Virus record (IMG/VR): IMGVR_UViG_3300045988_181536
Coordinates: 64,001 to 128,000 of that record
Strand: one strand, 5' to 3'
Source: a virus
Length of the DNA stretch: 64,000 nucleotides
Shown: positions 6,776 through 62,677 of the stretch, piece after piece
Numbering within the stretch: the first letter of the stretch is position 1
Layout: every line of letters starts with the position of its first letter
The notes under the pieces: model-generated
Seen by the model: the letters and a program-made list of their open reading frames with translations, nothing else
What the model was told of the DNA's origin: nothing
Databases searched by the model: none
Program-made: the position numbers and the translations under genes

Positions 6776-8160
6776 TGTCAACTACTCACCAGATGAACTA
6801 GTGAGCTTGATTTATATGTTTAAATCAATTTTAGACACTTCATTGCTTATGCTTGTTAAATCCTTAGTAGGCTTATCAAGTCTTATTTCAGCTCCATGTC
6901 TGTAATCATCCGTTGCAGATGATAGGATTGTTAATCCTCTTGTTAAAATATTTTTAGCAGCATTAACATCTCTGTCTAAAACTGTTCCGCATTGGGGACA
7001 TACCCAAAATCTATCTTTTAAAGTTAGGCTTTGATTAATATATCCGCAATTATGACAAGTTTTTGACGAAGGGTAAAAATGGTCTATTTTAATTATCTTC
7101 TTACCTTTCCATGCTGCTTTATATTCTAATTTTTGTATCATGCTATTCCAAGAGACATCTGCAATAGCATAAGCCAATTTATGATTTTGCATCATATTTT
7201 TAACAGCTAATGTCTCTAAACAAATTACATCATATTTGTTTAACAACAAGGTACTTAGTTTATGTTGCATATCTTCACGAGAATTGGTTATCTTTTCATG
7301 AAGTTTTGCTATTTTAATTCTAAGTTTTTCTTTTCTATTAGAACCTTTTTGTTTTTTGGAAAAGTGTTTTTGAAGCTTGGATAGTTTTGATTGATATTTC
7401 TTTTGAAATTTTAAGTTGGGATATCGTTTACCATCAGATGTTATAGCAAAATCTTTAATTCCCAAATCTATGCCCACTGCTTTTGTTAAATCTGCAGCAT
7501 CAGGAATACATACGTTTTGTTCTGTTAAAATAGAAACATAATATTTGCCTGACGGTTTTTTAGAAATTGTCGCACTACAAATTTTACCTTTTAAAGGTCT
7601 ATGATTAACAAACTTTATACCGTTCTTAAATTTGGGAATATATATTTTATCATTTTTAATAGCTACATTCTGTGGAACATTAAAAGAATTGTTTCCGTCT
7701 TTACGTTTAAACTTGGGAAATTTAGACTTTTTACTAAAGAATTTTCCAAAAGCCGTTTCTAAATTTTTTAATGATTGTTGAAGGCTTTGGGAATTAACAT
7801 CTTTTAACCACACATATTCCTTTTGCTTTTTAAGTGTAGTTAGAGCTTGTGAGCAATTATTGTAATTTAAAGTCTTTTTATTTTTAAGGTAAAATTCCTG
7901 TTTCTCTTTAAGAAAGTAATTATATACAAATCGGCAATGCCCAAAATGCAATGATAATAGTTCTTTGTCTTCAGGTGAGGGGTAAAGCCTATATTTATAG
8001 GATTTGTATATTGTTTTATTCATTATTTAAGTTAAACTAAAAACTACTTAGAATCAAATAGCAACAAAAAAAAATAAGAATCTATAATAACTTAAACAAA
8101 ACCCCACCATTCATCTTACCAGACAAGCTGGTAAGTTTTCTGGTGGAAATTAATAAAATT
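6776..8160 (-). mobile_element. IS200/IS605-family (IS1341-like) element carrying only tnpB; no tnpA
   Basis: RE hairpin ctcaccagatgaactagtgag overlapping the tnpB 3' end (6796-6817); LE-like nested palindrome ccaccattcatcttaccagacaagctggtaag..ctggtgg at 8104-8150. Confidence 0.6.
6812..8023 (-). CDS. tnpB: TnpB (IS200/IS605 family OrfB, RNA-guided RuvC-like nuclease)
   Basis: N-terminal YRLYPS..ELL..FG.CRFVYN; RuvC-I GIDLGIKDFA, RuvC-II ..CLETL, Zn finger CHNCG..CPQCG, RuvC-III DRDVNAAKNI. Confidence 0.85.
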   Translation of the reverse strand: MNKTIYKSYKYRLYPSPEDKELLSLHFGHCRFVYNYFLKEKQEFYLKNKKTLNYNNCSQALTTLKKQKEYVWLKDVNSQSLQQSLKNLETAFGKFFSKKSKFPKFKRKDGNNSFNVPQNVAIKNDKIYIPKFKNGIKFVNHRPLKGKICSATISKKPSGKYYVSILTEQNVCIPDAADLTKAVGIDLGIKDFAITSDGKRYPNLKFQKKYQSKLSKLQKHFSKKQKGSNRKEKLRIKIAKLHEKITNSREDMQHKLSTLLLNKYDVICLETLAVKNMMQNHKLAYAIADVSWNSMIQKLEYKAAWKGKKIIKIDHFYPSSKTCHNCGYINQSLTLKDRFWVCPQCGTVLDRDVNAAKNILTRGLTILSSATDDYRHGAEIRLDKPTKDLTSISNEVSKIDLNI

Positions 8161-25053: not shown

Positions 25054-27246
25054 ATGCGAACTTTATTTCTTTTGAGAGGAGCCCCAGGAAGCGGCAAATC
25101 CACTTGGGTGAACCGCAATAACTTGGAACCTTATACTTTATGCGCTGATCAAATTCGCACGCTTATTCAATGTCCCGTGCTAAATCTCAACGGAACATTT
25201 TCCATATCGCAGAAAAATGACAAAGAAGTGTGGGAGTATTTGTTTCATTTATTGGAAACTCGAATGGCTCGTGGCGAAATGTTAATAATTGACGCCACGC
25301 ATTATAAGAAAGAATTGCTTAATAAGTATAAAAAACTTGTTAAAAATTATCGTTATAGAGTTTACGTGGTTGATTTTGTTTCAGGCATATCCATGGAAGA
25401 ATGCATGCGTAGAAATCAAAATCGCACGGGTTACAAGATTGTGCCTGACCATGTAATCCAAAAAATGTATTCGGTGTTTAATTCCGAATCTAAGCAAATT
25501 AGAAATGCTTTTACGACTATTTCTCCGGAAGATGCTGTTAAGCTTATCCAAAATACAAATGACCAAGTAAAAGATTTTAATTCTTGGGAAAAAATTTATA
25601 TTTTTGGGGACATCCATGGCTGTTTTGAACCAATAAAAAGTTTTTTTGAAAAATATCCTTATGATGAAAAAGCCTTTTATATCTTTTTAGGCGACTACTT
25701 AGATAGGGGTTTGCAAAATAAGGAAGTATTGGAATGGGCTATAGAATTTGCCGAACATCCAAATTGTTTATTTTTGGAAGGAAACCATGAGAGATGGTTA
25801 AAGCTTTACGCCTCTAAAGATTCCGAGGATCAAAACTTAATAGCTTCTCGTGTGTTCTTAAAAAATACCATACCTCAAATTAAGGATATTGATCCCGTTA
25901 AAATTCGATCTTTTTGCTACAAACTTGCGCAAATGGCACTATTTTCTTATGGTAAACATACGACATGGTTTTGTTGTCATGGAGGGATGCCTGTATTGCC
26001 AAGTCTGCCAATTGCGGCCATAGAAATGATTCATGGTACGGGCAAATATGAAGACATAGATGAAGTGCATAAAGAATTTGAGCGTAGATACGGCAACTTA
26101 AATATCTATCAAGTTCATGGGCATAGAAATGTATACAAAGATGTCTTTAACGCTGACAAAAGTGTTTTTAATTTAAATTCTGCAGTCGAATACGGAGAAG
26201 ATTTGCGTATTTTAAAACTTGCGTTGCAAGAGGACGGATCGGTTACCAAAGAGCTTATAGAAGAACCAAATCCAGTGCATCTCACAGAATCAAACAAGGT
26301 GCGCAGGTTGTATGATAATGAAATAAACAACGACATTATTAAACAACTCTGTGATAATCCGAGTATTATTAAAATTCAATTGGATGACGGAATTATATCT
26401 TATAAATATGATTCAAAATTGTTTTTCTCAAAACAATGGACAGATCTAAATGTTATCGCCAGGGGATTTTTCTGTCGTAAAGATAAAATCATTTGTCGCA
26501 GTTATAATAAATTCTTTAATTATCAGGAACGGATAGAAACATCCCCAAAAGAACTTTGCAAAACATTGCAATTTCCTGTGAGCAAATTTCAGAAAGAAAA
26601 CGGATTCTTGGGATTGGTAAGTTGGGATGCCGAAATGGATAAGGCGTTTATTGCATCTAAATCAACCAATCAAGGCGAATACGCTCAAATGGTTCGTGAT
26701 CGATTTTATGCTTATGACTCATGGAATGAAATGTTAAATTACGCCAAAGAACATAACGTTACATTAATTTTTGAAGTCATAGAGCCGGAAAAAGATCCGC
26801 ATATTATCGAGTATGCACAACCGCATTTAGTGCTGCTGGATATTGTCGAAAACACAATGGAAGGAAAATTGCTTGAATATGATAAACTTAAAGAACTTGC
26901 CAATTCTTGGAACATCCCTTGTAAAATCTTGGAGCATGTTTACAATAACTGGGAAGAGCTTTGGGAAGATCTAAAGCAATTAGAGCATGAAAAAGATTTA
27001 AAGATCGAAGGCTTTGTTTTTCGAGACATCAATAATTATCAGTTTAAGTTTAAAACAAACTATTATAAACGTTGGAAATCGTTTCGCAGCTTAAAAGACA
27101 AATATGCGCGTTCAAAAGATCAAATGAGACAAGTATTTGTTGATAAAGAAGAAACGGATTTTTTCCTTTGGTTGAATACCCAACCTAAAGAATATGTCAG
27201 CAAAACTGATATTATTACTTTGAGACAAAAATTCTTATCTAATTAG
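25054..27246 (+). CDS. polynucleotide kinase / phosphatase / RNA ligase fusion (bacterial Pnkp-type RNA repair enzyme)
   Basis: N-terminal P-loop LRGAPGSGKSTW (T4 Pnk-like kinase); central metallophosphoesterase motifs IFGDIHG, LGDYLDRG, EGNHE, HGG; C-terminal nucleotidyltransferase with KENGF motif I and downstream ligase-like region. Confidence 0.7.
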   Translation: MRTLFLLRGAPGSGKSTWVNRNNLEPYTLCADQIRTLIQCPVLNLNGTFSISQKNDKEVWEYLFHLLETRMARGEMLIIDATHYKKELLNKYKKLVKNYRYRVYVVDFVSGISMEECMRRNQNRTGYKIVPDHVIQKMYSVFNSESKQIRNAFTTISPEDAVKLIQNTNDQVKDFNSWEKIYIFGDIHGCFEPIKSFFEKYPYDEKAFYIFLGDYLDRGLQNKEVLEWAIEFAEHPNCLFLEGNHERWLKLYASKDSEDQNLIASRVFLKNTIPQIKDIDPVKIRSFCYKLAQMALFSYGKHTTWFCCHGGMPVLPSLPIAAIEMIHGTGKYEDIDEVHKEFERRYGNLNIYQVHGHRNVYKDVFNADKSVFNLNSAVEYGEDLRILKLALQEDGSVTKELIEEPNPVHLTESNKVRRLYDNEINNDIIKQLCDNPSIIKIQLDDGIISYKYDSKLFFSKQWTDLNVIARGFFCRKDKIICRSYNKFFNYQERIETSPKELCKTLQFPVSKFQKENGFLGLVSWDAEMDKAFIASKSTNQGEYAQMVRDRFYAYDSWNEMLNYAKEHNVTLIFEVIEPEKDPHIIEYAQPHLVLLDIVENTMEGKLLEYDKLKELANSWNIPCKILEHVYNNWEELWEDLKQLEHEKDLKIEGFVFRDINNYQFKFKTNYYKRWKSFRSLKDKYARSKDQMRQVFVDKEETDFFLWLNTQPKEYVSKTDIITLRQKFLSN

Positions 27247-55217: not shown

Positions 55218-58200
55218 ATGGAAGAACAAGTAAAAACAAAAACCACGGATAATCCGGATCCGTTTACGAATGAGTTTTCCCGACAGATTTGGGAAGTAAC
55301 CTATAAAACGCAAAATGAAAAGAGTATTACAGATACGTGGAAACGTGTGGCAAATGCTGTAGCCAATGTAGAAAAGGATGAAGAATCCAAAAGATTTTAT
55401 GCTGAGGCTTTTTATGAGATTTTAAAAGATTTTAAGTTTATACCCGGAGGTCGTATATTGGCCAATGCAGGGGGTAGTTGTAAGAATGTCTCTCTCGTCA
55501 ACTGTTATCTCTCACCTGCTCCCAAATACGACATGGATTCCGTTGAAGGAATTATGGAGGTATTAAAGAACCAGGTTTTAACTTTAAAATCTGAAGGAGG
55601 CTGGGGTTTAAATTGTAGTTTTATTCGTCCCAGAGGTTCTTATATAGAAGGCATAGGTGCCAGAACCCCCGGTGCTGTAAAGTATTTGGAGCTGTTTGAT
55701 AAAAGTTCCGAAATTATTACGGAAGGTCCAGGAGAGTATTACATAGAGAATAAAGAAAAAACGCCTAAGAATGAAAAGAAGAAAATTCGCAAGGGTGCAA
55801 TGATGCTTTGTTTAAGCTGCTGGCATCCTGATATATACGAATTTATTACTGCCAAACAAAAGCCGTTTCATCTAACTAAAATGAATATGTCCGTAAATGT
55901 TACCAATGCTTTTATGGATATTTTAAATAGAGTTAACGAGCTTGTTAAAAACAATGCTTCGCAGGAAGAAATCGATGCTGTTGATTTTTGGCAATTGAGA
56001 TTTCCTGATACGGCTTTTGAAAAGTATAAATCCGAATGGGATGGAGACTTGGATAAATGGGAGAAAAAAGGTTATCCTGTAAAAGTTTATCGTACAGTAA
56101 GGGCTACTGATCTATGGGAAGCCTTAATGCAGTCTACCAGCAATCGTTCGGAGCCTGGAGTTTTATTTCTCGATAGGGCAAATGAGACACATTGCGCAAA
56201 TTATATCCCTGAGTTGCAATTAGTTGGGACAAATCCTTGTCTTACTGGAGATACCAAAGTTGCTGTTGCTGACGGGCGTACAAATGTGACTATTAAAGAG
56301 TTGGCCGAAGCTGGCAGAGATGTTCCGGTGTTAGCTTGTGATAATGCTGGCAATATTGTTACAAAGTTAATGCGTAATCCTCGTATTACAGGCTATAATA
56401 AAGATATTTATCGAGTGACTTTAGATGATGGTAATCATATTGATTGCACGTCTAATCATAAGTTTAGATTGTCTGATGGAACATATAAAGAGGTAAAAGA
56501 TTTATCAACAGGTGTAGCTTTGCACACAAATACGTTAAGTGTAGAAGAGTATAAACGTTATTTAGTGCAGGAAGTTTTAAATACGGAAATTACCCCTAAT
56601 CTTCAGCTTGATTCCGTACAACAACTGTGTGAAGAAGCAAAGTCTCAGGGTTATGAGGTAAAAATAGATAATAACATAGTTTTGGTTAAGAGGGTTTGTG
56701 AGGAATGTGGAAAAGAACATTTTGTTCCATTTACTCATCGCGAAATTGCGTTTTGTTCTCTGGAATGTTTAAATACCCATTTGAATAAAGAAAAAATCGC
56801 TGCCAAAACCACAAATACTGATTTAGATGTAATATCTGCTGAGGATTGGCCTGTAAGGTTTGTTTCGTCTATTGAATATATAGGCAAACAAGATGTCTAT
56901 ACCGGTACAGTTGATGATGTGCATAATTATTGCGTTGGGATGTTTGAAACTGTGAATGAACATGGACATCCAAAATTTTATATACTTAATAATCAGCAGT
57001 GCGGAGAGCAGGTTTTATACAGCGGAGGATGCTGCAACTTAGGATCCATCAATCTTACGGCATTTATAGAGTACGATGAAACTAAACATGCCGCCGTTTT
57101 TAACTTTCAGAAGTTCTCTGATATTGTTCCTTATTGCGTAAGATTCTTGGATAATGTCATAGACATTGCCAATCTGCCTTTGGAAGAATATAAATATATG
57201 GCTGAAAGTTATCGAAGAATCGGGCTTGGTATTACAGGCATAGGCTCTGCTTTAATGATGTTGGGTCTAAAATACGATTCTAAGGAAGCTAAAGACTTTT
57301 TAACTAAAGTTTTTGATGTTTATAATTTCTTAGGGATAAGGGCAAGTATCGCTTTAGCTAAATGTAAAGGTGCGTTTAAAGGATGCAATCCTGCAAAACA
57401 TGCTGATAATATAAAATATACGTTTAGACATTTACCGAAGTATATATTGGATGCTTTGCAAAAAGAATTGTTAGAAACTAACGGCATCCGCAATTCAGCC
57501 TTGTTCTCAGTCCAACCGACAGGCAATACAGGGTGTCTAGCCAATAATATTTCAGGCGGTGTGGAACCTGTGTTTCAGTTAGAATACTACAGAATTGTTG
57601 GAGTGCCGATTGTTCCTGAAAGCATAAAAGATAAATGTCCTAGGTTCTGGGAGGGGGATTTTACTCCGAACAATTATTTCAAAGAAGTTAAATACGCAGA
57701 TTTTACTTACTTGTCTTACGTAACTGAAGCTGGCCAAGAATATCAGATACATAAAGATAGAGGTCTGTGTGAAAAAGTAAAAATTCGAGATTATGCTTAC
57801 CAATGGATCTTGGATCATAATTTAGAATATCCACAGGAAGTTTTTACAACAGCTATGCAACTACCTGTTGAATCTCATTTGGAAATTCTGAAATTAGTAT
57901 CTGCACATTTGGATTCCGCTGTAAGTAAAACGATAAATGTTGGCAAGGATTACCCTTATGAACAGTTTAAGAATGTTTATTTAGATGCATATAATAGCGG
58001 AGTAATAAAAGGAGTTACGACTTATCGTGAGGGTTCTATGAGTGCAGTATTGCAAACTACGGATTCGAAAGATGACGTAAATCCTACATCTACATCGATT
58101 ATTCATCCTACTATTACTGCTGAGAAACGTCCTGATATATTGCCGTGTAGAGTATTTTTTAGAACGGTAAAAGGAATATCTTATTACTTTATTGTAAGTT

Positions 58201-58664
58201 TCTTGGAAAATAGTCCGTTTGAGATGTTTATTGACATAAATGAAGATAACATTTTTGACGAGGATGGAGAATGGGTTGAGCGCCGTCGCATTATACCCAA
58301 GACTGTAAAGGAAGGAACTTTAAAGAAGTTGGGTAAGGCTACGTTCGAGTTTGTATCTAAAGATGAGAAATTTATATTTAAAATTGTAAAAGCCAATGAG
58401 TCTTCAGATAAAGCCACATTAACAGCCCTTGCTCGTTTGGTGGCTTTGAATTTGCAGTCCGGTGTATCAGTGAAAGAGATAATACATCAGCTATCTAAAA
58501 CCGAAGGGGATTTTACTTCAATTGTGAAAGCAATTAACAAAGTATTGTCTCAGTGTGCTGGTAAAGTTGATCTTGGAGAAACATGCCCTGTTTGCGGAGG
58601 TAAAGTGTTACGTGAAGAGGGATGTAAAAAATGCTATGCATGTGGATGGTCTGCATGCGGCTAA
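55218..58664 (+). CDS. ribonucleotide reductase, class II-like (NrdJ-like), intein-containing
   Basis: RNR motifs NCYLSP, LKSEGGWGLNCSFIRPRGSYI, RKGAMMLCLSCWHPDIYEFI, active-site TNP|CGEQ interrupted by intein, CNLGSINL, C-terminal Cys-rich tail CPVCGG..CKKCYACGWSACG. Confidence 0.75.
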   Translation: MEEQVKTKTTDNPDPFTNEFSRQIWEVTYKTQNEKSITDTWKRVANAVANVEKDEESKRFYAEAFYEILKDFKFIPGGRILANAGGSCKNVSLVNCYLSPAPKYDMDSVEGIMEVLKNQVLTLKSEGGWGLNCSFIRPRGSYIEGIGARTPGAVKYLELFDKSSEIITEGPGEYYIENKEKTPKNEKKKIRKGAMMLCLSCWHPDIYEFITAKQKPFHLTKMNMSVNVTNAFMDILNRVNELVKNNASQEEIDAVDFWQLRFPDTAFEKYKSEWDGDLDKWEKKGYPVKVYRTVRATDLWEALMQSTSNRSEPGVLFLDRANETHCANYIPELQLVGTNPCLTGDTKVAVADGRTNVTIKELAEAGRDVPVLACDNAGNIVTKLMRNPRITGYNKDIYRVTLDDGNHIDCTSNHKFRLSDGTYKEVKDLSTGVALHTNTLSVEEYKRYLVQEVLNTEITPNLQLDSVQQLCEEAKSQGYEVKIDNNIVLVKRVCEECGKEHFVPFTHREIAFCSLECLNTHLNKEKIAAKTTNTDLDVISAEDWPVRFVSSIEYIGKQDVYTGTVDDVHNYCVGMFETVNEHGHPKFYILNNQQCGEQVLYSGGCCNLGSINLTAFIEYDETKHAAVFNFQKFSDIVPYCVRFLDNVIDIANLPLEEYKYMAESYRRIGLGITGIGSALMMLGLKYDSKEAKDFLTKVFDVYNFLGIRASIALAKCKGAFKGCNPAKHADNIKYTFRHLPKYILDALQKELLETNGIRNSALFSVQPTGNTGCLANNISGGVEPVFQLEYYRIVGVPIVPESIKDKCPRFWEGDFTPNNYFKEVKYADFTYLSYVTEAGQEYQIHKDRGLCEKVKIRDYAYQWILDHNLEYPQEVFTTAMQLPVESHLEILKLVSAHLDSAVSKTINVGKDYPYEQFKNVYLDAYNSGVIKGVTTYREGSMSAVLQTTDSKDDVNPTSTSIIHPTITAEKRPDILPCRVFFRTVKGISYYFIVSFLENSPFEMFIDINEDNIFDEDGEWVERRRIIPKTVKEGTLKKLGKATFEFVSKDEKFIFKIVKANESSDKATLTALARLVALNLQSGVSVKEIIHQLSKTEGDFTSIVKAINKVLSQCAGKVDLGETCPVCGGKVLREEGCKKCYACGWSACG
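56238..56999 (+). other. intein (254 aa) inserted before the catalytic Cys of RNR
   Basis: Block A CLTGDTKVAV, block B DCTSNHKF, internal Cys4 segment CEECG..CSLEC, block F VYTGTVDDVHNYCVG, ends ..ILNNQQ followed by CGEQ. Confidence 0.7.
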
Positions 58665-58717: not shown

Positions 58718-61700
58718 ATGAGAGAAAGCGAAATTAATTTACCCCCCGTGAATATGGATTTGCCATGTCCTAAATTGGCAGATTTTTGCGGAGATTTATC
58801 GTATAAACGTTGTAAGGATGACTTAACTCCCGAAAACGATAATGTAGTATTTTTAAATGGTGTAGGCAGGTTAAATGCGGATATAATGTTTTTAACTGCG
58901 GCGCCATTAAAAGAGGATGTGGATGCGAGATATTCTACACCTATGCATTTAAAATCGGGTGCCGGTGAAATGTTTCGCGCAATATGTTTGCAAAATGGCA
59001 TTGATATTGATGACTGTTATTTTACGTCATTAATAAAGTACGGAATAAAACAAAAGAATTTAAAAGGTTGTAAAAAGGATATAGATTATTGTTTGCCTTT
59101 GCTTCTGGAAGAATTTCAGTATTGTCACCCAAAAATTATAGTTTGCGTCGGTACGGAAGCGTGTGACTTTATTTTAAATTATAAAATAAGCGTATCAAAA
59201 TTGGAAGAGGCGTGGTTTTTTAGTCAAGAACACAACGCTCATGTGTTTGTAATTAGCAGTATTTATAATGCCTATTATAAGCCTGAATTGTACGATAAAT
59301 TAGATAAAGAGATAGGCATGTTGGCTGACTTTTATGATCATTTTCTACAAGGCAAGCCAATCGAGCAGATAAAGTGTGACTATCAATGTATTTCAACTTA
59401 TTCACAGTTATCCAATTTGTTAAATCAGCTTAAGTCTGAAGGTTATAAATTATTTGGAGTTGACTGCGAGTGGGGTAAACAATGTTTTGTAGACGGATAT
59501 CTTAGATCAATACAATTTGCATGGGCTCCAGGCAAGGCAGCTTATATAAACTTTAATAATGAACAAGCCGAATGGGTCTTTGATGCATCAAAAGAATCGG
59601 TATGTAAATTATTGCAAGATTTTTTTAATGACCCTGAAGTGCATTTTGTAGGGCATAACGGAGCGGCTGATGCTCAATGGATGTCAACACATTTGGGACT
59701 AAATGTGTATGACGGCAAGTTTATTTTTGACACCATGTTTGGTATTCAGACAGCTGATGAATATGCTGATCAAAAGTTGGAAAAATTAGCTGCCAAATAC
59801 ACAGATAAAGGCAGATATGATATTGATCTGATCTTATGGAAGAAAAATAATAAAGGCGTATCCTTTGATGAAGATGAAGGATATGGACAAGTTCCTTTGG
59901 AAATTCTTTACCCATATGGTTGTTCGGATGCCGATGTAACTTTAAGATTGTATCCGATTATTAAAGACATGTTAATTAAAGACGGCACTTATGATTATTT
60001 CATGAATATTAAGTTGCCGTTTGTTATTGATGGATTTACCTCCATGTCTATTGCGGGTGTGCCTTTTTGCACTGAGGATGCCAATAAAGCGCGAATAGCT
60101 TATCTGGCCGCAGGCGTAGTCATGCAAAAGTTGTTTATGCAAATGCTTAAAAAAGAGGCATATGATTTGTTTTATACGGAAGTGTCAAAAATTCCGCAGG
60201 AAACGCCTGTAGCGAATATTGCAGAAATTCAAAAGTTTTTTGATGATGAAAGATCTTTTGAAGATATTTTTAATCTGTTAAAAAAACTTTATGGGCGCAA
60301 AGCATTGCCTTTATTGCCGTTTGCTGAACATTATTACTATGTGGATGCCTTTAATCCCAATTCTGCAGAGCATAAAAAGAAATGGTTGTTTGACGTAAAG
60401 AAATACACGCCTATTAAAACAACTAAGCCGGAAGAGGGTAATGCAATACCCTGGGAAAGAGTATTAAAAATGTCCCCCGCTAAGCAGAAAAATTATAAGC
60501 CTGCTGTGGATAAAGATACTCTTAAAATATTTGCGGATAAAGGAGATGATTTATGTCTGCATTTATTGCAAATGAATGCAATTAATCAGATAACCAAGAA
60601 TTTTCTAAAAGGTGAAGAAGGCGGGCTGCAAAAGTTTTTAACTTCAGATGGAAGGCTGCATTCCAACTTCGTTATGACCGAAAGCTCACGGCCACGATCG
60701 TTTAAGCCTAACATCTTAAACATACCAAGATATGTTACAGATTACATAGACAAGGGTTTCACGAAAGTATTAAAGTATTTTAATATTACAGATAAATCTG
60801 ATTTGTCGGAGTTTAATGAAGATAATTTTAATGAAATCGTAAATTCTTTACGTGAAACTTACGGCATTACCGAAAATATAACGATAAAAGATATGGTGCC
60901 TGCACCGTTGCGCTGGTGCTTTAAAGCGCCTGAAGGGTATTGTTTTGTCGATGCAGACTATGCCACAGCTGAAGTATGGTCGATTGCATATTTGGCAAAT
61001 GATAAAAAGTTAATTTCCACTTTGAATGATCCGGATCCGCAATTTGCATTTAAAAAGATGCCTGATGGTTCGGAAAAACAAGTGCGTATAGCATATTGTG
61101 ATGACATTGTTGAATTTACTGAAGATGCAAAAGATCCTGCACTACTTGTAGATCCTAATGATCCGGATTTGGTGAGAAATAATGACGGGTCTCTAAAGCA
61201 TCCGAAACAAGATGTTCACTGGGTTGCAGTGGAAAATAAATTTATGCTTAACACACCCCGAGAAAAGTTAAACAAGAAGAAGACGAGAGATGCTGCGGGA
61301 AAGGTAGCTAATTTTTGTTCTGGCAAAGAAAATTACGTTTATACTTTAGAGGGTTATAAAAAAGCAAAGTTAATAAAACAAGGAGATATTTTAAAATCAA
61401 TATCCGGTTTTACAAAAACTTTATCTGTTACTGCTTTAAATGAGAGAGACTGCATTAAGATCAGATTAAGTTCCGGATTAGTGGCTACTTATCATAAATA
61501 TCATAAGCTTAGATGCTTTAATGGTACGGAAATGGTCTGGGTAAGAGTTAAAGATATCGATCCAAAAAGGCATAAAGTAGTTACCTTCAATCCGAGTTTT
61601 ACTGAAGTTATAGGCACTTTTAATGTTCCAAAAGATTCTTATACGGATTTTTATACAGAATTGAAATGTCGTGAAGGTGATAATACCTATCGCTTGCCTG

Positions 61701-62677
61701 AGTGGATATTCTCTTTAAGTCGTGCTGAGATTTGGAGTATATTGCAACGCTTTTTAGAATTAAACCCCCGAGTCACCGATGCGGTGTGTTATCATTTTCC
61801 GTTAAAATTTTGGAAAAATAATTTAGAATTTATTTCCGATATTGCTTTATTGTTGAATTTTATAGGTTTTCAAACCAAGCTTTCGTTGGAACAAGGCGAG
61901 GATGTTTTAGTGGCTTCGGCTGCTATCGAACCTAATGGGCCTTTGCAAAATATTTATTTTAGTGAAGTTGTTTCTTTGGAACATGTGAAAGAAGATATTG
62001 TGGCAATTGAATGTGAATCCCATGAATATATAGACACTTCAATGAATAGCCATAATTCGATTCCTTATGGTGCAAGTCCTTCTTTGCTGGAACGTAACAT
62101 TGAAATAGCTTCAGGTGAAAAACCTGAACCTGGTACGGGACAAAAACTTATTGACGCCTATATGAACACCAAACCGCAAGTTGCAGAATTTTTGGAATGG
62201 TGTAAGTCTCTGCCTGACGGACAAGGGTATTACCAATCGCCTTCGGGATTTAAAAGACATTTTAAAATACCGCCTTTGGATGCTCAAATGTCGGATGATC
62301 TTAGAGAAAGTATCATAAGTAAACTTCGTCGAGAAGCTTGCAATATAGGATTGCAATCTTTGGTTGCTGACTCTTTAGCAAGGGCCATACCTCCACTAAA
62401 TGCCAGTTTTAGAAAGATGAATATGAAGAGCAGAGTAGTAATTCCTTTGTATGACGCTATTTATATTTTATCTCCTTACAACGAAGTCGATTTGGCTGTA
62501 AGTATGTTGAAGTTTTTTATGTCTGAGAATAATTATTGGGACCTAAAAGGCGGTCGCTTGCGTTACAGTATTGATGTCGAAGTTACAAAACGGTGGGGTA
62601 CAGAACTTTCTGAAGAAGAACACAAAGAACTAACTGAAGGATTAAAAAACGCTTGCCAGACGTTCAAGCTTGCGTAG
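58718..62677 (+). CDS. family A DNA polymerase with N-terminal UDG-like domain and 3'-5' exonuclease, intein-containing
   Basis: Exo I FGVDCEW, Exo II FVGHNGAADAQWM, Exo III YPYGCSDAD; Pol motif A FVDADYATAEVWSIAYLA; motif B R..AGKVANF|intein|SIPYGAS; motif C VIPLYDAIYIL; N-terminal ~150 aa weakly resembles family-4 UDG. Confidence 0.75.
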   Translation: MRESEINLPPVNMDLPCPKLADFCGDLSYKRCKDDLTPENDNVVFLNGVGRLNADIMFLTAAPLKEDVDARYSTPMHLKSGAGEMFRAICLQNGIDIDDCYFTSLIKYGIKQKNLKGCKKDIDYCLPLLLEEFQYCHPKIIVCVGTEACDFILNYKISVSKLEEAWFFSQEHNAHVFVISSIYNAYYKPELYDKLDKEIGMLADFYDHFLQGKPIEQIKCDYQCISTYSQLSNLLNQLKSEGYKLFGVDCEWGKQCFVDGYLRSIQFAWAPGKAAYINFNNEQAEWVFDASKESVCKLLQDFFNDPEVHFVGHNGAADAQWMSTHLGLNVYDGKFIFDTMFGIQTADEYADQKLEKLAAKYTDKGRYDIDLILWKKNNKGVSFDEDEGYGQVPLEILYPYGCSDADVTLRLYPIIKDMLIKDGTYDYFMNIKLPFVIDGFTSMSIAGVPFCTEDANKARIAYLAAGVVMQKLFMQMLKKEAYDLFYTEVSKIPQETPVANIAEIQKFFDDERSFEDIFNLLKKLYGRKALPLLPFAEHYYYVDAFNPNSAEHKKKWLFDVKKYTPIKTTKPEEGNAIPWERVLKMSPAKQKNYKPAVDKDTLKIFADKGDDLCLHLLQMNAINQITKNFLKGEEGGLQKFLTSDGRLHSNFVMTESSRPRSFKPNILNIPRYVTDYIDKGFTKVLKYFNITDKSDLSEFNEDNFNEIVNSLRETYGITENITIKDMVPAPLRWCFKAPEGYCFVDADYATAEVWSIAYLANDKKLISTLNDPDPQFAFKKMPDGSEKQVRIAYCDDIVEFTEDAKDPALLVDPNDPDLVRNNDGSLKHPKQDVHWVAVENKFMLNTPREKLNKKKTRDAAGKVANFCSGKENYVYTLEGYKKAKLIKQGDILKSISGFTKTLSVTALNERDCIKIRLSSGLVATYHKYHKLRCFNGTEMVWVRVKDIDPKRHKVVTFNPSFTEVIGTFNVPKDSYTDFYTELKCREGDNTYRLPEWIFSLSRAEIWSILQRFLELNPRVTDAVCYHFPLKFWKNNLEFISDIALLLNFIGFQTKLSLEQGEDVLVASAAIEPNGPLQNIYFSEVVSLEHVKEDIVAIECESHEYIDTSMNSHNSIPYGASPSLLERNIEIASGEKPEPGTGQKLIDAYMNTKPQVAEFLEWCKSLPDGQGYYQSPSGFKRHFKIPPLDAQMSDDLRESIISKLRREACNIGLQSLVADSLARAIPPLNASFRKMNMKSRVVIPLYDAIYILSPYNEVDLAVSMLKFFMSENNYWDLKGGRLRYSIDVEVTKRWGTELSEEEHKELTEGLKNACQTFKLA
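61316..62056 (+). other. intein (247 aa) inserted in DNA polymerase motif B
   Basis: Starts C at NF|CSGKENYVY, ends ..SMNSHN followed by SIPYGAS; the extein junction restores ANF-SIPYG, matching the PolA motif B consensus; internal region may be a degenerate homing endonuclease. Confidence 0.65.

Follow-up and report, generated by a model that had tools for sequence, protein, structure and literature searches.

A predicted nuclease-less intein with a glutamine end and a conserved four-cysteine finger at the radical-cysteine site of a phage ribonucleotide reductase

Inteins of ribonucleotide reductase (RNR) are most frequently reported at one point, directly N-terminal to the thiyl-radical active site (Dassa et al. 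2009, PMC2677866). Inteins at this radical-cysteine site, Gln-ended inteins, HNH inteins and nuclease-less mini-inteins are all known singly. Here we analyze a large phage whose nrdJ gene has an insert at this very point; the gene is carried on a 64,000-nucleotide stretch of viral DNA (IMG/VR record IMGVR_UViG_3300045988_181536, positions 64,001 to 128,000; hereafter the window). The insert is 254 residues long and we assign it to the class 1 inteins. No nuclease domain is detected in it, it ends in Gln, and between its splicing halves it keeps a four-cysteine (Cys4) finger that is maintained by selection.

Among described systems, the CIV RNR intein resembles the window intein in being "glutamine-type", with a C-terminal Gln and a viral RNR large subunit as host. 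In experiments it splices, and a terminal Gln serves it better than Asn (Amitai et al. 2004, summarised in PMC4031507; PMC549080), but its host is the RNR of a eukaryotic virus rather than a phage NrdJ, and the likeness is one of published description. According to the same summaries, the Gln-ended Pab and Mma PolII inteins splice slowly (PMC4031507; PMC549080). The Pyrococcus abyssi PolII mini-intein (2lcj, among the Foldseek matches of our insert) is also nuclease-less, but it is archaeal, sits in another host protein and has no zinc-finger insert. The same insertion point before the thiyl-radical Cys is occupied in Dickeya phage LIMEstone1 NrdA, Synechococcus phage S-CBWM1 NrdA and the 735-kb uncultured phage LR756501 by inteins with a related N-terminal splicing region (36-44% identity over the first ~100 aa by tblastn). 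Unlike the window intein, these have an HNH nuclease and lack the Cys4 finger, and they end in the canonical His-Asn (LIMEstone1 and S-CBWM1, ...VHN/C, the slash marking the splice junction here and below) or in Lys-Asn (LR756501, ...VKN/CGEQ). The Thermus phage G20c intein at this site is of the LAGLIDADG type, ends ...SGN/CAE and is without a finger. These same-site inteins of cultured or assembled phages belong to other sub-lineages. A likeness of architecture rather than of sequence is offered by I-TevIII, the HNH homing enzyme of the phage RB3 nrdB intron, which also targets a phage RNR gene and has a separate DNA-binding domain with two zinc fingers (PMC1865063); it differs in being intron-encoded and not part of an intein. 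Its T4 counterpart is truncated, in a shorter, non-mobile version of the intron (PMC1865063).

The nrdJ precursor gene lies on the plus strand at 55218..58664 (1148 codons plus stop, one intein), as delimited from the list of open reading frames (ORFs), Pfam and TIGR02504. On the same strand, the N-extein is encoded at 55218..56237 (aa 1-340, ending ...LQLVGTNP), the insert at 56238..56999 (~28.6 kDa, class-1 type, Cys1...Gln254) and the C-extein, beginning CGEQVLYS..., at 57000..58664. The original prediction had placed an intein of exactly these 254 aa, CLTGDTKVAV...FYILNNQQ, between TNP and CGEQ, and the translation bears this out. On the whole ORF, Pfam identifies the Ribonuc_red_lgN all-alpha domain, the lgC barrel as one stretch running across the insert, and a C-terminal TSCPD domain. 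The conceptual spliced product, 894 aa and ~101 kDa, scores above the NrdJ equivalog TIGR02504 (NrdJ_Z, NCBIfam; 447.6 bits against a cut-off of 399.95), and its best solved match is the T. maritima B12-dependent RNR 1xje (E 6e-46), with no gap across 'stnpcge'. Because of this gapless alignment and the TIGR02504 score, we assign the host protein to the class II (adenosylcobalamin-dependent) RNRs as an NrdJ with an NPCGE thiyl-Cys loop. The reference alignment also confirms the extein junction and places the insert, as predicted, immediately N-terminal to the catalytic thiyl-radical Cys of this loop, whose TGC codon at 57000-57002 (+) encodes the +1 residue.

Taken alone, the insert exceeds the curated cut-offs of two intein family models, Pfam Intein_splicing PF14890 (E 5e-12, 46.2 bits against a gathering cut-off of 35.8) and NCBIfam intein_Nterm TIGR01445 (48.5 bits against 24.5), a match well outside what chance would give. 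This assignment by hidden Markov model (HMM) agrees with the blocks first noticed in the letters, all of which are present in the translation: TSNHKF at aa 71-76, VYTGTVDDVHNYCVG at aa 220-234 and CEECGKEH...CSLEC at aa 154-177. The N-terminal 90 and C-terminal 40 residues match solved DnaE and DnaB inteins by sequence, with block F (kqdvyTgtvddvHnycv) aligned to KQNVYDIGVERDHNFAL of Npu DnaE. The Hint-N half comprises aa 1-95 (56238..56522, +), with block A CLTGDT and block B T71-S-N-H74 at 56448-56459, and aligns to the Npu DnaE and DnaB inteins; the Hint-C half, delimited by alignment to known inteins and by family counts, comprises aa 206-254 (56853..56999, +), with block F at 56895-56939 and block G ...FYILNNQQ. 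Between the halves lie linker 1 (aa 96-125, 56523..56612, +), which takes the place of the HNH domain and helical repeats of relatives, an accessory module of a helix, a beta-hairpin and the Cys4 finger (aa 126-185, 56613..56792, +), and linker 2 (aa 186-205, 56793..56852, +). The finger proper, CEECGKEHFVPFTHREIAFCSLEC, with the motif CExC-x15-CSxxC, occupies aa 154-177 (56697-56768, +). No other-frame ORF of at least 60 aa is listed within the insert, and outside the coding frame no stretch free of stops is longer than 63 aa.

An AlphaFold model of the insert, computed from an alignment of 26 family members, has an overall predicted local distance difference test score (pLDDT) of 85, as against 38 for a single-sequence model. 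Confidence is above 90 in the splicing core and ~93 over residues 130-170, and it falls in linkers at ~110-125 and ~190-205 (mostly 49-71 in linker 1, below 50 at aa 193-202 in linker 2). The top Foldseek matches in the Protein Data Bank (PDB) are the mini-inteins Ssp DnaB, Npu DnaB and DnaE, and Mtu RecA, with target-normalised TM scores of 0.75-0.84. Of the expected splicing residues, Cys1, block B Thr71 and His74, block F His229 and the +1 Cys are present; the terminal Asn (Gln254), the penultimate His (Gln253) and the block-F Asp (Thr222) are absent. The end thus reads ...NNQ-Q in place of the penultimate His and C-terminal Asn of a canonical block G. Thr222 sits opposite the block-F Asp that follows an aromatic residue (VYD in Npu DnaE), an assisting and not a defining residue. 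Judged by family models, predicted Hint fold, conserved splicing residues and the intein-free alleles described below, the insert is a class 1 Hint-domain intein, but no plain mini-intein: it has no detected nuclease, yet its 254 aa include an extra folded and selected module of 60 aa, as against the usual splicing domain of ~130-200 aa with a short linker.

Scanning viral and metagenome contigs with the spliced RNR yielded 15 loci on contigs of 103-175 kb and two short ones; human gut metagenome is the title of 4 of the 9 related metagenome contigs. By nucleotide (nt) identity to the window, their RNR genes form lineage A (94-98%), lineage B (~70%) and an 87% group. The site is empty in L006 (= L013) and L012 of lineage A and in L007 and L019 of lineage B. 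The 254-aa mini form is found in the window, L001, L009 (= L016), L010, L014, L015, L017 and L020, and in L011 of lineage B, and a 486-aa full form with HNH domain, repeats and its own finger in L008 and L018. The full form shares with the window intein its site and gene lineage (L008 extein 94-98% nt identical) and its termini (CLTGDTKVAVAD...NNQQ/CGEQ); it differs by HNH_3 and helical repeats that make it 232 aa longer, and the L008 cassette, finger included, is 42-64% nt identical to that of the window. The intein-free lineage A alleles, 94-98% nt identical to the window, read LQLVGTNP/CGEQVLYS, and those of lineage B read SNP/CGEQ; the empty-site DNA of L006 runs ...GTTGGGACAAATCCT/TGCGGGGAGCAGGTTTTATAT... 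across the junction. Since such natural alleles fix the junction, the last intein residue is Gln254 (CAG, nt 56997-56999).

Might the insert instead be a lineage-specific RNR domain or loop that is kept in the mature enzyme, as the lack of a canonical His-Asn end could suggest, with splicing read from sequence? The empty and occupied lineage A alleles have identical extein residues at the junction, which excludes a retained domain for practical purposes, and inserts of 486 aa stand at the same point. The Hint fold with its likeness to solved mini-inteins, the family-model scores, the conservation of Cys1, TxxH and the +1 Cys, and a position that splits NP/CGE of the active-site loop all argue in the same direction, and we consider a retained domain hardly credible.

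An exhaustive HMMER search returned 2976 matches, and a homologous insert could be delimited in 135 of the best 150; a word-indexed protein search found one near-identical fragment. All 135 relatives sit at xNP/C.../CGE, with Cys at +1 in every case. Counting the window intein as well, the first residue is Cys in 136 of 136, block B reads TxxH in 130 of 136, with T71 and H74 invariant or nearly so, and block F has Asn right after VY in 126 of 136. The intein ends in Gln in 81 of the 135 relatives and in Asn in 54, and none has a penultimate His. The C-terminal Gln of the original prediction therefore stands, fixed by the intein-free alleles; it is not peculiar to a few viral RNR inteins, with 81/135 relatives sharing it. 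It is a known variant and the majority state in this lineage. Position -3 covaries with the last residue, being Asn in 51 of the 81 Gln-ended and Thr or Ser in 36 of the 54 Asn-ended relatives, and the two kinds are interspersed on a neighbour-joining tree drawn without support values. A change from Gln to Asn requires two base changes. When the family alignment served as a search profile, nearly all of the proteins returned were unnamed and metagenomic. What is new is a large lineage, of almost wholly metagenomic origin, whose norm is an unusual catalytic set (Gln or Asn end, no penultimate His, block-F Asn).

Selection on the insert was measured by counting changes by parsimony per codon column among the seven distinct mini-intein DNA alleles, all of which have intact frames. 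Synonymous and nonsynonymous changes number 63 and 16 in Hint-N (ratio of nonsynonymous to synonymous rates, omega, 0.08; binomial P 2e-26) and 26 and 11 in Hint-C (omega 0.10; P 4e-11). The Cys4 module, aa 126-185, has 17 and 9 (omega 0.13; P 6e-7), while linker 1 has 6 and 14 (omega 0.61; P 0.22) and linker 2 has 4 and 13 (omega 0.91; P 0.53). Linkers 1 and 2 evolve neutrally, the module differs from them (Fisher P 0.004), and selection holds the finger as firmly as it does the splicing domain, even with no nuclease in cis. In the exteins dN/dS within lineage A is ~0.03-0.06, and the C-exteins of the window and L010 are separated by 38 synonymous and 5 nonsynonymous changes. These patterns indicate a functional host gene and a splicing domain that is being maintained.

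Such constraint is difficult to reconcile with a dead, splicing-defective intein in an nrdJ pseudogene on its way out. That explanation could draw on the terminal Gln, on the missing penultimate His and block-F Asp, and on frameshifts in one related contig, L001 (Logan ERR2213674), where 1-nt deletions at locus positions ~146, 895 and 1661 split the RNR into three called genes. The three deletions, however, lie in or next to homopolymer runs of a low-grade assembly and are most likely assembly or read errors, so that we rejected them as evidence of pseudogenisation. The same atypical residues are the norm in the 135 relatives, Gln-ended inteins are known to splice (PMC4031507), and all seven mini alleles are in frame, with omega in the Hint halves and dN/dS in the exteins as low as given above. 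A dead intein is, in our view, very unlikely.

We propose that the precursor is translated as one chain of 1148 aa, in which the intein would stand within the NPCGE loop, between Asn-Pro and the radical-forming Cys; with the loop split in this way, the precursor cannot be a working reductase. Because exteins and Hint halves are under purifying selection and the RNR could not work unless the insert were removed, we infer that the intein splices, and by the class 1 scheme (Mills, Johnson and Perler 2014, PMC4031507) it would do so in four steps. An N-S acyl shift at Cys1, helped by block B Thr71 and His74, would be followed by trans-thioesterification to the +1 Cys. Gln254 would then cyclise in place of Asn and without a penultimate His, as established intein chemistry would allow, and an S-N shift would release the 894-aa NrdJ and a free intein of ~29 kDa.

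Neither Pfam nor a lineage-specific HNH HMM detects an HNH or LAGLIDADG domain in the insert, and no related HNH was found elsewhere in the 64-kb window, so a trans-acting nuclease encoded within the window was rejected. The wider family does have an HNH nuclease. Long relatives match Pfam HNH_3 at 33-35 bits against a cut-off of 24.8, and by the lineage-specific HMM an HNH domain is detected in 105 of the 135 relatives; L008 has one too. Their full-length architecture is Hint-N, HNH nuclease, helical repeats, Cys4 finger, helical repeat and Hint-C, and relatives of intermediate length have lost the HNH/repeat region in graded steps. From the family pattern and these graded forms, the window intein appears to descend from an HNH-bearing ancestor. 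It is best described as a derivative of the HNH family by homology of its other parts, and not as an HNH intein by architecture. Two further readings were considered and rejected. For an HNH relic in linker 1, MAFFT placed LNTEITPNLQL against NNxPxNLxxM of the HNH domain, but an HMM of the HNH/repeat region scores 1.1 bits there, within the range of shuffled sequences, which reach 4.5. Origin of the window intein by one simple, recent deletion from that of L008 is at odds with central cassettes that are 42-64% nt identical between ends at 96-99%.

The Cys4 insert had been read as standing in for a classical homing endonuclease. It is indeed present where HNH and LAGLIDADG are undetected, but it is no alternative to a nuclease. 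With the lineage-specific HMM and the motif scored together in the 135 relatives, 90 have both HNH and finger, 25 the finger without HNH, 15 HNH without the finger and 5 neither. Because it accompanies an HNH domain in those 90, and likewise in L008, the finger is an accessory module of the HNH-intein lineage and not a substitute nuclease. A new, very small homing nuclease might still be imagined in a module that is the only conserved non-splicing element of the insert and has invariant or near-invariant charged residues, a Glu after the first Cys and an Arg-Glu pair. The complete HNH domain alongside it in relatives argues for the accessory role instead. Its core of ~45-60 aa has four Cys as metal ligands but lacks a conserved catalytic set of His/Asp, and even the His of CGKEH is Phe in 100 of 116 relatives. 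What similarity the module has, weak and below threshold throughout, is to treble-clef zinc fingers. We judge a nuclease function extremely unlikely.

The strict pattern CxxC-x12-20-CxxxC is present in 115 of the 135 relatives and a degenerate form in 5 more. The conserved unit of ~60 aa (core ~45-60) consists of a helix ending (Q)GY, a beta-hairpin and then K-x-C-E-x-C-G-x-x-F-x-V-P-x-x-x-R-E-x-x-F-C-S-x-x-C; C154, C157, R168, C173 and C177 are invariant in both family alignments. In relatives of 450-500 aa, which make up most of the set, the finger lies at about residue 280-326, behind the HNH_3 domain and helical repeats. No Pfam family matches it significantly, the treble-clef families VATC (18.6 against 26.6) and zf_Tbcl_2 (16.2 against 27) both scoring below threshold, and a PDB profile search gave no solved homologue, with the archaeal AlaRS N-terminal zinc knuckle at E 3.7e-4 and the PHC1 FCS finger 2l8e at E 2.6. 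CEEC-x15-FCSLEC fits the ligand pattern C-x2-C...(F/Y)-C-S-x2-C, and the model predicts a knuckle followed by a strand and a helix, with every family-model match below threshold; we take the pattern to resemble FCS, MYM or TRASH-like treble-clef motifs. Zinc binding by the four Cys is probable. Looked for outside inteins, the finger drew no match in a word-indexed protein search with a 64-aa profile, and tblastn of the full HNH and finger cassette against 50,697 phage records returned only RNR inteins and one HNH-only match. No second copy was found within the window. By analogy with I-TevIII, the likeliest origin of the finger is a zinc finger with which the ancestral homing enzyme bound DNA. 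Charge was dropped as evidence for DNA binding, since it shows no excess and lends no support either way. We found no description of this Cys4 finger in the literature searched, and a finger that is both conserved and selected is new.

The intein alleles also recombine with each other inside the intein. The window and L008 inteins are 96-99% nt identical over aa 1-88 and 226-254, on either side of the divergent center. The window and L011, the lineage B mini form, have exteins saturated at synonymous sites (pS 0.70-0.83); in their inteins the first 165 nt are ~68% identical, whereas nt 180-660 are 85-100% identical, with dS ~0.2. A further protein, P0004, has a third variant of the central cassette (246 aa, 57% identical) in an RNR almost identical to that of the window. 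At 24 sites in Hint-N that separate the window from P0004, L011 agrees with P0004 at the first seven (aa 27-50) and from aa 54 on with the window at 15 of the remaining 16. It is this switch at aa 50-54 from P0004-type to window-type that indicates recombination within the intein, and the L011 mini-intein (L011:4015-4776) is a clean recombinant of the two types. Horizontal transfer of a whole mini-intein between lineages A and B, initially suggested by 85% intein against 70% extein identity, has been replaced by this internal patch of nt 180-660, with its breakpoint at aa 50-54. A co-conversion tract in the C-extein of L011 is not claimed, the lineage-A-like patch there being non-contiguous with the intein. 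The window intein belongs to a population in which empty, mini and full alleles coexist and recombine.

Taken together, we have good confidence in a class 1 intein in a large-phage nrdJ that lacks a nuclease, originates from an HNH lineage and has had its finger kept by selection. The window copy is probably not self-mobile; vertical descent, together with recombination with other intein alleles, would account for its persistence. The finger could be kept in such nuclease-less copies since the insert must fold cleanly for splicing, or since it still binds DNA, and of these the folding requirement is the most economical explanation of its retention.

Several points weigh against this account. 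Splicing is deduced from conservation, and with the terminal Asn, the penultimate His and the block-F Asp missing together it could be slow or conditional. Nuclease loss is likewise deduced from the family pattern, the central cassette being no recent deletion product of L008, and the neighbour-joining tree that scatters short among long forms is without support values. The count of relatives retaining the finger is biased towards finger-bearing copies, the search query itself having contained the finger. The DNA-binding role is drawn by analogy; no excess of positive charge was found in the finger (mean +0.013 per residue, -1 in the window copy), and the 50,697 phage records held no free-standing HNH with such a finger. 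Finally, the window is 64 kb of a genome of perhaps 170 kb, and a trans-acting nuclease may be encoded elsewhere in it.

A different explanation is that the mini-intein is a non-autonomous mobile element whose finger binds the homing site while co-infection supplies an L008-type HNH in trans. Related contigs do have empty, mini and full alleles side by side, the mini and full forms have near-identical Hint ends, intein alleles recombine, and the finger is under purifying selection with no nuclease in cis; moreover, HNH enzymes such as I-TevIII dimerise via the zinc-finger DNA-binding domain (PMC1865063). A two-genotype co-infection of mini and empty alleles, however, has no nuclease and therefore no drive, and the tract common to the RNR lineages lies inside the intein, comprising neither the whole of it nor co-converted flanks. 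Charge gives finger DNA binding no support, and the folding requirement accounts for selection on the finger equally well. We regard mobilisation in trans as unlikely, though far from negligible. The same weight attaches to the broader proposal that the finger is a working domain, either for recognition of the empty site, with spread on the HNH of full alleles, or as a zinc- or redox-sensitive splicing switch. If the former were true, the mini-intein would spread as a non-autonomous element; if the latter, the finger would time splicing and control maturation of the phage RNR. Selection on the finger in seven nuclease-free alleles, its invariance in the family and recombination among alleles are compatible with either version.

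The window and its sister contigs have further features outside the radical-cysteine site. In L009/L016 and in protein P0002, nrdJ carries a second intein, of 395 aa and LAGLIDADG type (ILGRFAGDGS, LCGFVDADGC), at VN/C(Y/F)LSP, so that the gene is polymorphic for two different inteins. This second site is empty in the window, at RNR Cys96 (55503-55505, ...SLVN/CYLSP...). Downstream, the ORF at 58718-62677 (+) encodes a family A DNA polymerase with an N-terminal domain of the uracil-DNA-glycosylase superfamily (aa 48-179) fused before the 3'-5' exonuclease. A 247-aa in-frame insert at 61316-62056 (+) splits this polymerase as ...AGKVANF/.../SIPYGASP; with its Cys start, His-Asn end and following Ser it looks like a second intein of the window. 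It has no Pfam match, its best PDB match is the gp41-1 intein at E 0.43, and tblastn found no match in the 50,697 phage records; it may be a very divergent intein. Elsewhere, a 403-aa ORF at 6812-8023 (-) matches transposase PHROG phrog_506 (E 2e-132) amid a phage replication and packaging region. The terminase large subunit at 13006-15045 (-) has 679 aa, of which the family match covers aa 241-641 and leaves an N-terminal extension. Over its full length, a 730-aa ORF at 25054-27246 (+) matches an RNA-ligase PHROG; it has matches to polynucleotide kinase/phosphatase families as well.

A finger that is selected after loss of the nuclease contradicts the simple expectation that, with homing at an end, the whole region between the splicing halves will decay. 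The lineage in which it occurs offers many natural test cases for the third step of splicing without the usual helpers, and it is a source of inteins with Cys/Cys junctions for protein engineering. The related large phage contigs, with their empty, mini and full alleles, show the whole homing cycle at one site and provide a natural system that is directly testable.

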